64,000 nt of DNA. Origin: an uncultured Acidimicrobiaceae bacterium. Lineage in GTDB: Bacteria > Actinomycetota > Acidimicrobiia > Acidimicrobiales > CAIXPF01. The position numbers and the translations under genes are program-made. Shown in pieces: positions 36,633 through 49,432 of the stretch (the stretch's first letter is position 1; each line of letters opens with the position of its first letter). The notes under the pieces were generated by a model. That model was given only the letters and a program-made list of their open reading frames with translations. It did no database searches and was not told the DNA's origin. The stretch spans positions 424,249-488,248 of the forward strand of contig CAVZHK010000013.1 of the NCBI GenBank assembly GCA_963775055.1, given 5' to 3'.

Positions 36633-37398
36633 TCAGCGACCGCGGGATTTGGCCAGGGTGCCCAGATACAGCTCGATCACCTTGGGGTCATCGAGCAGTT
36701 CCCGTCCGCCGCCGGTGTACGCGTTGCGGCCCTGATCCAACACGTAGCCCCGGTCCGCAACCTGCAGGCAGCGGCGGGCGTTCTGTTCCACCATGAGGAT
36801 GGCCACGCCGGTGCGGTTGATGGCCCTGCACTGCAGGAAAACCTGATCCTGCAAGGCCGGCGAGAGTCCGGCAGAAGGCTCATCGAGCAGCAGCACTGTG
36901 GGCTCCAGCATCAGCGCCCGGCCCATGGCCACCATCTGGCGTTCACCGCCGGAGAGGGATCCGGCCCGGCTGGCCGGCGCGTTCCTGCAATCGGGGGAAC
37001 AGGTCGATACACGTAGGACAGCCGGGTCTTGAACAGTGGAGGGCTTGAGGAAACAGCCCATCTCAAGGTTCTCCGTGACGGTGAGGCTGGGAAAAACGTT
37101 GCGGGTCTGGGGCACGAAACCGACCCCCCGCTCCACCAACTCGTGGGCCTTGCGCCCGGTGATGGGCTCACCCCGCAATCGGACCAGACCGCTGCGTATG
37201 GTGACCAGGCCCAGGACGGCCTTCAACAGGGTGGACTTCCCGGCTCCGTTGGGCCCGATGATGCCCACGAACTCCCCCGGCCCCACCTCCAGGTTGCAGC
37301 CGTTGAGGATGTCGACCTCCGGCACGTAGCCCGCCACCAGCTCGCTGACGGTGATGATCGGCTCGGCGCGGGCGGGATCGCTCGGGGGTCTCGGCCAC
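36633..37398 (-). pseudogene. livF: branched-chain amino-acid ABC transporter ATP-binding protein LivF, at least 4 frame disruptions
   Basis: Walker A GPNGAGKST, LSGGERQM, LLLDEPSAGL. The segment between them only reads as conserved sequence (FKTRLSYVY / DLFPRLQERAGQ / AGSLSGGE) by changing frame near 37035, 37007 and 36967. The N-terminus shifts again near 37370. Confidence 0.8.
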
Positions 37399-37400
37399 CG

Positions 37401-38289
37401 TCAGCGCCCCAGATCCAAGTCGTGGTGGGTGCCGAGGTAGGCGTCGATGACCGCCTGGTTGGCGCCGATGCTCTCGGGCCGTCCCTCGGCCAGGATCCGT
37501 CCCTCGGCCATCACCACCACCCAATCGCTGATGTCATGCACCACGTCCATGTCGTGCTCCACGAAAATCACCGTCATCTACCTTCGTCGCGCAGGTCCTT
37601 CACGTGGCTCAGCAGGCTCTGGGTCAACGCCGGGTTCACGCCGGCCATGGGCTCATCCAACATGACCAGCCTCGGATTCGCCATCAGCGCCCGGGCCATC
37701 TCCAACAGCTTGCGCTGGCCGCCGGAGAGGTTCCCGGCGAACTCGCCGCGCATGGAGTCCAGCTTGAACCGTTCGAGCAGATCGTCGGCGCGGGCTTCGA
37801 TCTGCTGTTCCTGATCTCGCCACAACGGGCGCACCAGCCCGGCGAAGATGGATTCGCCCCGCTGGCCCACCGCCCCCAGCTTCATGTTCTCGATCACCGT
37901 CAAGCGGGTCAGGGATTTGGTCAACTGGAACGTGCGGACCATCCCGGCGCGGGCCAGACGGTATGCGGCTGGCCCGCTCGATCGGTTTCCCGTCGAAACG
38001 CCAGGTTCCCGAGTCCGGCTCGTCGAAACCGGTGATGAGGTTGAAGAACGTGGTCTTTCCGGCGCCGTTGGGTCCGATCAACGCAGTGATGGCACCCCGT
38101 TGGAACTCGACGTGGTCCACATCGACCGCAACCAGGCCTCCGAACGTGCGGCGGACGGCGATCCGCCACGAGCAACGGGTCGGGCTTGGTCGACCCTGCT
38201 TCCTGGCTGACCCCGTCGAAGGGGGTGGCGGTCCGCCTGCCGCCCGGACGGTTGTCGCGTCGCGCCCGCTCCCCGTCGTCAGCGGACAT
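37401..38289 (-). pseudogene. livG: branched-chain amino-acid ABC transporter ATP-binding protein LivG, at least 3 frameshifts
   Basis: Pieces lie in three frames: MSADDG...LLVA / IAVRRTFGGLVAVDVDHVEFQRGAITALIGPNGAGKTT / AAYRLARAGMVRTFQLTK...LSGGQRKLLEMARAL...DEPMAGV / MTVIFVEHDMDVV...AYLG. Breaks lie near 38163, 37970 and 37572. Confidence 0.8.
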
Positions 38290-46783: not shown

Positions 46784-47097
46784 AGCCCTTCAAGCTGGAC
46801 GATGTCAAGGAGGCCCTCAAATCCGCCGGTGTCGCCGGCATGACGGTGACCGAGGTCCAGGGCTTCGGTCGCCAGGGAGGCCACACCGAGGTGTACCGGG
46901 GCACGGAGTACCAGGTGGACTTCCAACCCAAGGTCCGGGTGGAGATCCTCTGTGACGCGGCGGTGGCCGAACGGGTGGTGGAGGCCATTGTCGGCGCTGG
47001 TCGGACCGGCAAGATCGGTGATGGCAAGGTGTGGATCACCGACGTTGGTCGGGCCATCCGCATCCGCACCGGCGAGATGGGTGAGGACGCCATCTGA
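46756..47097 (+). CDS. glnB: nitrogen regulatory protein P-II
   Basis: [21 protein letters not shown]...[23 protein letters not shown] (T-loop Tyr). 113 aa, intact. Confidence 0.93.
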
Positions 47098-47121
47098 GCC
47101 GCGCCGAAAGTCACCGCTTCG

Positions 47122-49432
47122 TTGCAGCGTGATGACCTGTTGGGTGATGAGACCCTCCAGGGCGCGGCGTTCTGCTCGGCTCACACCGAGCGCTTGGACG
47201 CGTGGCTGGGGGAGCTTTATCAGCAGGCCGGCGCCCCCGCCGAGGGTGTGGCGCTGGTTGCGGTGGGCGGTTATGGGCGGGGTGAGCAATGCCCCCACTC
47301 GGACTTGGACCTGCTGCTGCTGCACGAACCCCGGGTGGATGTGGCCGAGCTGGCCCCGCAGCTGTGGTACCCAATCTGGGACACCGGCCTGAAGCTGGGC
47401 CACGTGCACCCCCACGGTCAAAGAGGCGCTAAGCCTGGCTGACGAGGAGCTGGACTCTGCCACCGCCTAGCTCGATGTGCGCCTGCTGGCTGGGGACGTC
47501 ACGCTGGCCGATGAGCTGCGGTCCGGGGCCCTGAAGGTGTGGACCAAGGGCGCCAGCCGTTGGCTTTCGCAGCTGCGTGAGGGCCTGGCGCAGCGGGCCA
47601 TCACCCCCGGCGAGGTGGCCTTCGTGCTGGAGCCCGACCTCAAGCTGGGACGCGGTGGCCTGCGCGACGGGCACGTGTTGCGCTGGTTGGAGGCCCTGCA
47701 GCCCGGGTTGGAGGACGCCGACCGGGCGGTGTACGACGAGGCCGTGGCCACCCTGCTGCGGGTGCGGGTGGCGCTGCATCGACGCCTCGCCCGCCCCGGG
47801 GACGTGTTGCGCCTCCAGGAGCAAGACGGTGTGGCCGAAGACCTCGGGTATCCCGACGCCGACGCCCTCATGGCCGCGGTGGCCGCCTCCGCCCGGGCCA
47901 TCGAGTGGCTGACCGATGATGCCGTTGATCGGGTGTCCCTCAGCGGTTCGGGCGGCGGGTTCATGCGCCGCCGTCGGGAACGCAAGTTGGCCAACGGCGT
48001 GGTCCTACGCGATCAGCAGGTCCACCTCGATGCCGAGGTCGAGGCGGACCCGCCGGGAGCGGCCGTGCAGCTGCTCGATGTGGCCTTGGCGGCAGCCCAT
48101 CATCAGCTACGGGTGGCTCGTAACACCCTCGAGCGGCTGGCCGCGTCGCCACGGGCCTTCCCCGAACCGTGGCCGACGGAGCTGCGGGAGCGGTTCGTGG
48201 AGCTGTTGCGCTGCGGACCGGCCATGATCCCCGTGATCGAAGCGTTGGATCATTGGGGGCTGTTCGTGCCGATCATCCCCGAGTGGGAACCGTGCCGCAG
48301 CCGACCCCAACGCAACGCCTACCACCGCTTCACCGTGGACCGGCACTTGTGCGAGGCCGCCGCCAACGCCGCCCACCTGGTGGCCAGGGTCGACCGGCCG
48401 GATCTGCTGGTGGTCGGAGCACTGCTGCACGACATCGGCAAGGGCTACCCGCCGGCGGATCACACCGAGATCGGCATCAGCCTGGTGGGTACCATCGGCA
48501 CCCGCATGGGTTTCGCCCCCCAGGACGTGGCGGTGCTGATGGACATGGTGCGCCACCATCTGCTGCTGCCCGATGTGGCCACTCGTCGGGACCTTTCCGA
48601 CGACGCCACCATCACCGCGGTGGCCAACACCGTTGGTCAGCTGGGCACCTTGCGGTTGTTGCACGGGCTGACCGAGGCCGATTCGGTGGCCACGGGGCCC
48701 GCGGCCTGGGGCGAATGGAAAGCCGGGCTGGTCCGGGAGCTCGTGGACAAGACCTCCCACGTGCTGGGCGGGGGCGCGGTGTCCGCCGCCAGGGGCACGC
48801 AGTTCCCCACCCTTGAGCAGCTTCACCTGATGGTGGAAAAGGCCAAGGTGGTGTTCACCGACGAGCACACCCTGACCGTGATCGATGCCGACCGGCCGGG
48901 CCTGTTCGCCACCGTCGCCGGCGTGTTGGCCCTGTCAGGGCTGGACGTGCTGGCGGCGGAGGCCTTCTCCGATGACGAGGGCGGCGCCCTGTGCTCGTTC
49001 CGGGTGGAGTCCCGTATGGACGAAGGTCCGCCATGGGACAAGATCCGAGCCGACCTGAGCCGGGCCCTGCAGGGTCAGTTGGCCCTGCGGGCCCGGTTGG
49101 CGGAGCGGGCCCGGACCTATGGTCGGCGGCAGTTGCGCCACGCCCGCCCGTGGGCCCCATTCGAGAACAAGATCCTGTTCGACAACGACGCCAGCGCCGC
49201 AGCCACCGTGTTGGAGGTCCGGGCCCTGGACGCCATCGGGCTGTTGTACCGGGTGACCACAGCCATGGCCGAGCTCAACTTGGACATCCGCTCGGCCAAG
49301 GTCCAAACCCTCGGTGACCACGTGGTGGACGCCTTCTACGTCCTTGACCCCACCGGCCGCAAGATCACCGACCCGGCCTACCTGACGGAGATCGAACGGG
49401 CCCTGCTCTACACGCTGGCCGGCGGAACCTGA
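47122..49432 (+). pseudogene. glnD: [protein-PII] uridylyl/adenylyl-transferase GlnD, frameshift in a C-run (47409-47413) plus in-frame TAG (47468-47470)
   Basis: Nucleotidyltransferase [19 protein letters not shown], then [30 protein letters not shown] in a second frame. HD domain LLHDIGKG and two C-terminal ACT-like domains follow. Confidence 0.85.

Follow-up and report, generated by a model that had tools for sequence, protein, structure and literature searches.

Clustered frame-breaking lesions in uptake and nitrogen-signalling genes of an Acidimicrobiaceae contig are most likely consensus errors

Frame-disrupting lesions are concentrated in the liv, amtB and glnD genes of a 64,000-nucleotide stretch of DNA from an uncultured Acidimicrobiaceae bacterium (GCA_963775055.1, contig CAVZHK010000013.1; the whole stretch is referred to here as the window). 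The lesions are real in the sequence record; since the broken genes are otherwise conserved, the clustered breaks are most likely sequencing, consensus or assembly errors and not mutations carried by the organism. A preceding sequence-only reading had left open whether they reflected gene decay or an assembly problem. Our analysis favours the assembly problem, with decay disfavoured by the absence of relaxed selection and by indels that are not of the slippage type.

Lesions were mapped by frameshift-aware protein-to-DNA alignment of intact L001 proteins against the window and were checked by MAFFT nucleotide alignment and by three-way alignments with L002. Both references are collinear Acidimicrobiales relatives (L001 has ~83% nucleotide identity to the window). 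The sequence-only reading had listed at least 21 lesions between 36.6 and 47.5 kb, and this analysis recovered 21/21 of them within a few bases, in eight genes. It had also pointed to a comparison with the closest relatives; in L001 and L002 all of these genes were intact, and the lesions were private to the window. At these loci the genes of L001, L002 and, across glnK-glnD, L161 were intact and matched one another in length, and every indel was window-specific. When L002 was run through the same aligner as a negative control, no frameshift was called in the liv, amtB or glnD genes. The lesion-bearing genes are given below, with the positions first estimated in parentheses.

36633..37385, minus strand: livF, ABC ATPase (Pfam ABC_tran; intact 250 aa in L001); +1 at 36972, 37006 and 37035, 10-nt insertion (net +1) at 37369 (36967, 37007, 37035, 37370)
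37401..38316, minus strand: livG, ABC ATPase (alignments to L001/L002, Pfam); +2 at 37575, +1 at 37966, +1 at 38156 (37572, 37970, 38163)
38279..39323, minus strand: livM, permease (Pfam BPD_transp_2 match ends at profile position 244/269); +1 (T inserted) at 38432 (38430)
39320..40700, minus strand: livH, permease with an N-terminal CarboxypepD_reg-like domain (alignments, Pfam); +1 at 39458, +1 at 39543, -1 at 39617 (39457, 39560, 39625)
40753..42139, minus strand: LivK-type conventional binding protein (Peripla_BP_6 match broken at profile position 155); one +1 at 41468 (41470)
43929..45256, plus strand: pyridine-nucleotide-disulfide (CoA-disulfide-like) reductase (alignments, Pfam); one -1 (C3 to C2) at 45038, 218 nt before the 3' end (45035)
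45394..46669, plus strand: amtB (Pfam Ammonium_transp); -2 at 45681, +1 at 45826, +1 at 45981, -1 at 46019, TAG at 46497, -1 at 46560 (45692, 45821, 45978, 46021, 46497, 46560)
47122..49432, plus strand: glnD (alignments including L161); +1 (T inserted) at 47405, TAC to TAG at 47468

The trio of +1 insertions in livF scrambles ~22 codons upstream of the LSGGE signature before the frame is regained, and the 10-nt insertion lies in the N-terminal region. All three livH lesions fall within the final 300 nt, leaving the other ~1.0 kb without any; the remaining 1.96 kb of glnD is likewise free of lesions. The in-frame TAG of amtB arises from a replaced 5-nt block. One assignment did not hold: the glnD frameshift had been placed in the C5 run at 47409-47413, a run shared by L001 and L161, and the extra base is the T at 47405. 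Four candidates were not scored as lesions: 39 extra nt in livG (38228-38278; in frame, in a variable N-terminus) and frameshift calls at 42149 (upstream of the start codon), 43031 (a naturally shorter N-terminus) and 51544 (a variable C-terminus).

The proposed clustering, which a uniform error process would not produce, was strongly supported. The 10.85-kb range carried 21 lesions compared with 6 in the other 53.15 kb (binomial P = 6.7e-12), and over 20,000 random placements the highest count in any one 10.85-kb window was 17. Most of the range's lesions lie in two dense patches of ~2.5 kb each, at 36.97-39.62 kb and 45.04-47.47 kb. The first ends within livH; the second starts within the reductase gene and ends within glnD. 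Four genes of the range (2.0 kb) were lesion-free (P ~0.02 at the range's mean rate), three of them between the patches at 42.2-43.9 kb and one, glnK, inside the second patch:

42221-43042, plus strand: LarE/NAD-synthase-like gene, without lesion
43029-43499 and 43496-43879, plus strand: two small conserved genes, without lesion
46747..47097, plus strand: glnK (P-II protein), intact between the broken amtB and glnD

The sequence-only reading had described the lesions as clustered in specific operons. The clustering stands, but the patches start and stop inside genes and spare these four. Every lesion of livH, of the reductase gene and of glnD is at the patch-facing gene end (Fisher combined P = 0.03). 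Since the patch edges lie inside genes and four genes in the range are spared, these data provide suggestive evidence that the pattern follows position along the DNA rather than functional units. A repeat search of the window found nothing able to explain an assembly collapse.

The six lesions outside the range comprise three in groEL and one each in genes for an enoyl-CoA hydratase, a sensor kinase and CbiZ:

4338..6750, minus strand: NIT-HAMP-HATPase sensor kinase; one frameshift at ~6500, cutting the N-terminal transmembrane and NIT-start segment off from the remainder
22719..23482, plus strand: enoyl-CoA hydratase; -1 (T5 to T4) at ~22871, splitting the conserved GFCAGAD motif
26648..28280, plus strand: groEL, stand-alone copy with a GGM-type tail (comparison with relatives); +1 at 27284, +1 at 27653, -1 at 27926
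56729..57581, plus strand: cbiZ; +1 (extra A in AGAAACC) at ~57300

The three groEL lesions and the one at the T4 run at 22871 had been noted from the sequence, and each was found again. The frame-corrected GroEL differed from six relatives at one invariant position (S399C). Of five conserved-site mismatches seen against distant homologues, closer relatives showed four to be natural to the clade. At ~28118 groEL carries a window-specific extra Ile codon, reading LRAKIG where relatives read LRAK-G or L-VKIG, which looks like the product of a consensus drawn from two mixed alleles. The cbiZ frameshift lets the open reading frame continue into the next gene, imitating a CbiZ-glyoxalase fusion. 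The stretches at ~6.8-22.8, 28.3-36.6 and 47.5-57.2 kb had been called clean, and a homology and coding scan detected no lesion there: comparison with L001 gave zero lesions at 32.5-36.6 kb and 47.5-53 kb, and in the remainder Pfam matches were full-length and the coding signal single-frame, a scan that is less sensitive where a close relative is missing. A second binding protein at 35.2-36.5 kb was intact; the sensor kinase (~6.5 kb) and cbiZ (~57.3 kb) lesions lie just beyond these stretches.

We also examined the indel spectrum. In the 36.6-47.5 kb range 18 of 19 indels were 1-2 nt, insertions outnumbered deletions by 14-15 to 5 (by scoring of the 10-nt event), and the largest deletion was 2 nt. 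Most insertions sit between unlike bases, and 7 of the 10 unambiguous inserted bases were A or T in a genome of 68% GC (P = 0.016). Across the whole window, only ~3/25 indels fell in ancestral runs of at least 3, compared with 79% of indels in simple repeats in Mycobacterium smegmatis mutation accumulation (P = 2e-12; PMC4938668). With few events in repeats and no larger deletions, this spectrum is unlike that of natural mutation. Nor does it show the homopolymer association of polished PacBio/Nanopore consensus errors; in PacBio or Nanopore assemblies of good coverage, homopolymer indels make up most of the errors that remain (PMC8574707; PMC12007338). The lesions are, as expected of errors, indel-dominated, private to one assembly and located on conserved coding sequence, and the non-homopolymer, insertion-rich spectrum is closer to the noise of raw single-molecule reads than to the homopolymer errors left in a PacBio or Nanopore consensus of good coverage. 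Because the lesions are not of the homopolymer type, a technical origin would need a special circumstance, such as near single-read depth or mixed strains.

Substitution load was then assessed after frame correction, at alignment columns where other Acidimicrobiia loci show at least 95% conservation. In these columns the lesion-bearing genes had 7/770 mismatches, equal to L001, with 0/352 in livFGMH and 1/134 in amtB. Decay at the base-substitution:indel ratio of M. smegmatis mutation accumulation (4.1:1; PMC4938668) together with the observed indel counts predicts ~15 extra mismatches (P = 1.8e-4), and at the most indel-rich bacterial spectrum found (2.8:1; PMC8717266) the absence of extra mismatches still had P = 0.004. 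Window-specific amino-acid changes per codon were similar in broken (4.08%) and intact (3.92%) genes, dN/dS against L001 was 0.07-0.24 in broken genes and 0.07-0.13 in well-conserved intact genes, and nucleotide identity to L001 did not drop within the patches. A nucleotide relative-rate test gave an excess of 0.6 +/- 0.7%, too noisy to be informative, and the conserved-column test was used instead. Window-specific substitutions beside indels (9.6% versus ~6%, n = 114) were not significantly elevated. The frame disruption of natural pseudogenes was present (21 lesions in 8 genes, intact in L001/L002), and their relaxed selection was seen neither in conserved columns nor in per-codon change nor in dN/dS. 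As judged from these substitution measures, the broken genes are otherwise still under strong purifying selection, with no relaxation.

Real and very recent pseudogenisation would mean the loss of three functions, namely uptake of branched-chain amino acids (livFGMH and the binding protein), uptake of ammonium (amtB) and uridylylation of P-II (glnD), with each unit taking a first inactivating hit and then further lesions. The lesions strike all five liv genes as well as amtB and glnD but spare the unrelated 42.2-43.9 kb genes and the second binding protein, two of them are nonsense codons, and an insertion excess would not be out of keeping with natural mutation in actinobacteria (2.1:1 in M. 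smegmatis; PMC4938668). However, it is difficult to reconcile 21 independent disruptions with no detectable substitution excess at conserved sites or per codon and with the low dN/dS; the indels do not have the character of slippage events, deletions >2 nt and insertion-sequence elements are absent, lesions cease abruptly within glnD, livH and the reductase gene instead of spreading, and groEL and three unrelated genes bear lesions of the same kind. We consider this account unlikely. Pseudogenes of reductive evolution, exemplified by those of Mycobacterium leprae and host-restricted bacteria, combine multiple frameshifts with stop codons in genes for transport and regulation and across whole operons, and they also gain substitutions, relaxed dN/dS, slippage-type indels and larger deletions. 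Set against this general picture of M. leprae-type pseudogenes, the window is alike in its multiple frameshifts and stops, its transport and regulatory targets, the intact orthologues and the involvement of whole operons, but lacks the substitution excess, the relaxed dN/dS, the slippage indels and the larger deletions. It is very unlikely that the lesions are genuine and record a recent shutdown of branched-chain amino-acid and ammonium import and P-II uridylylation by a burst of non-slippage 1-nt insertions in kb-scale patches; if true, this would imply a localised, indel-specific mutational process of unknown kind.

A mixture, in which the dense patches are artefact but some of the isolated lesions are true mutations of the strain, is distinctly unlikely. 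Its candidates are T5 to T4 at 22871, the A-run insertion at ~57300, C3 to C2 at 39617 and 45038, and TAC to TAG at 47468, events of the slippage or single-substitution type that occur naturally but are equally typical of homopolymer sequencing errors and indistinguishable from the other lesions. Programmed recoding (ribosomal frameshifting, transcriptional slippage or stop-codon readthrough) would keep the genes functional, and the frame is indeed regained over a short distance in livF (+1/+1/+1), amtB (+1/-1) and livH (-1/+1). In contrast, the lesion sites have no slippery heptamers, long homopolymers or shared motif, and up to six events fall within one gene. Because the lesions are not conserved, the genes of relatives all being uninterrupted, recoding is effectively refuted. 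Reassignment of TAG was ruled out, as TAG is an ordinary stop here that ends 8/49 long genes.

We therefore return to errors in the record as the preferred explanation, under which residual sequence-determination or consensus errors would be concentrated in a few short low-quality patches (~27.3-28.1, 36.97-39.62 and 45.04-47.47 kb) at ~4 per kb, with a thin scatter elsewhere. The cause is probably very low read depth, a stretch left without polishing or filled from a single long read or very few, or a mixed-strain consensus. The three hits in groEL, with the same pattern of indels without substitutions, support an artefact. Counting against it, the two nonsense lesions are above expectation if substitution errors are rare, the five liv genes hit and four genes spared give some gene-specific look, and three lesion sets partly regain frame. 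Protein searches for same-species sequence found none (best identity 93% for GlnD and 95% for GroEL, the latter frame-corrected), no exact match of four intact window proteins was on record, and a metagenome scan with a fast-evolving protein reached 53% identity at best; the best relatives have 83-88% nucleotide identity to the window.

Long-read and low-coverage assembly errors (Kastor, PMC12007338; ARAMIS, PacBio, PMC8574707) are alike in that small indels cause frameshifts and premature stops in genes intact in relatives, several per gene, in coding sequence that is otherwise unchanged. Published residual errors are 70-99% homopolymer, and in high-GC genomes mostly G/C deletions (PMC12007338; PMC8574707), whereas those of the window are mostly non-homopolymer insertions, often of A/T, and lie in patches of ~0.6-2.7 kb rather than being spread along the contig. 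A strain-collapsed metagenome consensus is alike in that the dense patches coincide with the block's most conserved genes (groEL, ABC ATPases, amtB), where reads from related populations would pile up, and in that one groEL site resembles the union of two natural alleles; this likeness is circumstantial, a mixed-allele origin being established for no frameshift.

The contrast between frame-breaking indels and conserved-site substitutions tells assembly damage from true decay without recourse to reads, and the sequence record needs re-polishing or a warning flag before it is used. Taken at face value, the lesions would lead annotation to report an organism with no ammonium or branched-chain amino-acid uptake, no GlnD signalling and a broken chaperonin, a reading that would skew both metabolic reconstructions and counts of pseudogenes.

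Species-representative genomes were scanned with the intact protein encoded at 42221-43042, and matches were obtained in Acidimicrobiia only. The best-matching locus, L001 (Acidimicrobiales MAG F1F2.bin.495, k127 contig), was collinear with the window (68% GC) over 32475-52964 at ~83% nucleotide identity, and all genes of this block were uninterrupted in it. A second collinear Acidimicrobiales locus, L002, gave 72-79%, and L161 served as a nearer relative for glnK-glnD (87.6% nucleotide identity). A same-species sequence was sought and not found: four intact window proteins had no record in protein look-ups and the best match in a metagenome scan was 53% identical. 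The nearest proteins found were for GlnD (93% identical) and GroEL (95%).

L001 proteins were aligned to the window by dynamic programming that permitted codon matches and gaps as well as frameshifts of 1 or 2 nt, cross-checked by MAFFT nucleotide alignment and three-way alignments including L002. This analysis recovered, within a few bases, all 21 frame-breaking indels or nonsense changes (lesions) that the sequence-only reading had listed at 36.6-47.5 kb. The identical aligner called zero frameshifts in the liv, amtB and glnD genes of L002, demonstrating that it does not invent them at this divergence. At every lesion in the range L001 and L002 were equal in length; the changes are therefore specific to the window. 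The sole inaccuracy was the siting of the glnD frameshift in the C5 run at 47409-47413, a run common to relatives; in L161 there is no inserted T at 47405, and the window's TAG at 47468 corresponds to TAC. Apparent frameshifts at 42149, 43031 and 51544, and a 39-nt excess where livG begins, were rejected as natural variation at gene ends. Three features of the uptake genes were also recorded:

46493-46497 (+), amtB TAG: a 5-nt block replaced (TATAG in place of the CCGAA or GCGAA of relatives), not a single substitution
35183-36547 (+), second binding protein, intact, 454 aa, conserved in L001 and L002; Pfam Peripla_BP_6 matches from residue 213 only (profile positions 2-227 of 343) and the ~200 residues at the N-terminus resemble the C-terminal third of that fold, suggesting circular permutation of a LivK-type binding protein
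39323-40700 (-), LivH permease with a fused N-terminal secreted domain (~130 aa, CarboxypepD_reg/SdrD_B-like), also present in L001

Six lesions were identified elsewhere, among them the three previously noticed in groEL:

27284, 27653 and 27926, groEL: +1, +1 and -1
22871, enoyl-CoA hydratase gene: split, one T lost from a T5 run within the GFCAGAD motif
~6.5 kb, NIT-HAMP sensor kinase gene: split
~57.3 kb, cbiZ: split by an extra A, with apparent fusion to the next gene

The remaining window genes either matched Pfam profiles over their full length in one stretch or showed coding signal in a single frame, and comparison with L001 revealed zero lesions at 32.5-36.6 kb and 47.5-53 kb. These results uphold the stretches earlier described as lesion-free, short compensated shifts being invisible without a close relative. 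Further features outside the range were as follows:

56729-58084 (+), 451-aa ORF mimicking a CbiZ-glyoxalase fusion, a product of the +1 at ~57300; the true cbiZ end is ~57581 in a different frame, and the glyoxalase gene begins at MAIKD near 57.6 kb
2971-6750 (-), conservon-like cluster typical of actinobacteria: Roadblock/LC7, DUF742, ATP_bind_1 GTPase and NIT-HAMP-HATPase sensor kinase (frameshift ~6500)
12401-16174 (+), AtuA-family protein, then nitrile hydratase alpha, beta and a beta-like accessory gene, all intact
19478-20665 (-), one 396-aa ORF joining S-adenosylmethionine decarboxylase and spermidine synthase domains

The range carried 21 lesions in 10.85 kb and the remaining 53.15 kb carried 6, so that density differed 17-fold (binomial P = 6.7e-12), and the maximum in any 10.85-kb window among 20,000 random placements was 17; the clustering noted from the sequence alone is thus borne out. 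Two dense patches were identified, at 36972-39617 (about 12 lesions over 2.65 kb) and 45038-47468 (9 over 2.43 kb), while a single lesion at 41468 stands apart; the groEL lesions make up a third patch of like density. The patches cross gene boundaries and fall on the block's most conserved genes. Lesions lay at the gene end facing a dense patch in livH (3 within the last 300 nt, 0 in the other ~1.0 kb), the CoA-disulfide-like reductase gene (its one lesion 218 nt from the gene end) and glnD (2 in the first 350 nt, 0 in the remaining 1.96 kb); the Fisher combined P over the three genes was 0.03, which is suggestive of lesions tracking position along the DNA rather than function. Counting toward gene specificity, all five liv genes were hit, and four genes in the range (2.0 kb) were lesion-free (P ~0.02 if lesions fell at the range's mean rate).

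What decides between decay and artefact is that the broken genes have indels without any surplus of substitutions. Frame-corrected dN/dS against L001 was 0.07-0.24 for broken genes (livM left out) compared with 0.07-0.13 for well-conserved intact genes, and window-specific amino-acid changes per codon, counted with L002 as outgroup and codons adjoining lesions excluded, were 4.08% and 3.92%, respectively. At columns with at least 95% agreement among homologues from other fetched loci, broken genes mismatched at 7 of 770, a number equalled by L001 (livF, livG, livM and livH together, 0/352; amtB, 1/134). Nucleotide identity to L001 was not reduced inside the patches. Natural mutation yields several substitutions per indel: Mycobacterium smegmatis, a high-GC, mismatch-repair-free actinobacterium, gave 856 substitutions and 207 indels (PMC4938668), and across most bacteria indels account for 1.8-11.9% of mutations, the highest share found being ~26% (PMC8717266). 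Scaled from per-gene indel counts, ~15 extra conserved-column mismatches are expected at a 4.1:1 substitution:indel ratio (P = 1.8e-4) and ~10 at 2.8:1 (P = 0.004). The same pattern holds for groEL: of five residues that seemed unusual against distant homologues, four were common to six closer relatives, leaving one change at an invariant position despite three frameshifts. An extra, window-specific Ile codon at ~28118 (28109-28120, +), in the conserved YEDL..G(I/V)ID segment, gives LRAKIG where relatives have LRAK-G or L-VKIG; this looks like a union of two alleles and is an anecdotal hint of a mixed-strain consensus.

Indels in the range were of 1-2 nt in 18 of 19 cases, the exception being 10 nt inserted in the variable N-terminal part of livF, and insertions outnumbered deletions ~3:1. 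Most insertions were flanked by two different bases, and 7 of 10 unambiguous inserted bases were A or T. Larger deletions and mobile elements were absent. Over the whole window only ~3 of 25 indels fell in ancestral runs of at least 3, compared with 79% in simple repeats in the M. smegmatis experiment (PMC4938668; P = 2e-12). The spectrum thus differs from natural slippage-driven mutation, and is unlike the homopolymer-dominated residue of a well-covered PacBio or Nanopore consensus (PMC8574707, PMC12007338). It resembles either random single-molecule read noise, of the kind that persists only when depth is very low, or a mixed-read consensus.

Local damage to the sequence record is very probably the explanation. 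Of the two readings left undecided from the sequence alone, a local sequence or assembly problem is therefore favoured, and true loss of the nitrogen-uptake and signalling functions is unlikely given the absence of extra substitutions. Collapse through repeats was considered as an assembly route, and no explanatory repeats were identified within the window. Programmed recoding is excluded: the lesions have no shared or slippery motif and are not conserved in relatives, and TAG is in regular use as a stop codon. That the lesions are genuine is improbable and would require a mutational process that acts locally and yields indels alone; this would be the only reading of real interest. Until the reads have been inspected, no pseudogene call should be made for liv, amtB, glnD or groEL in this record.
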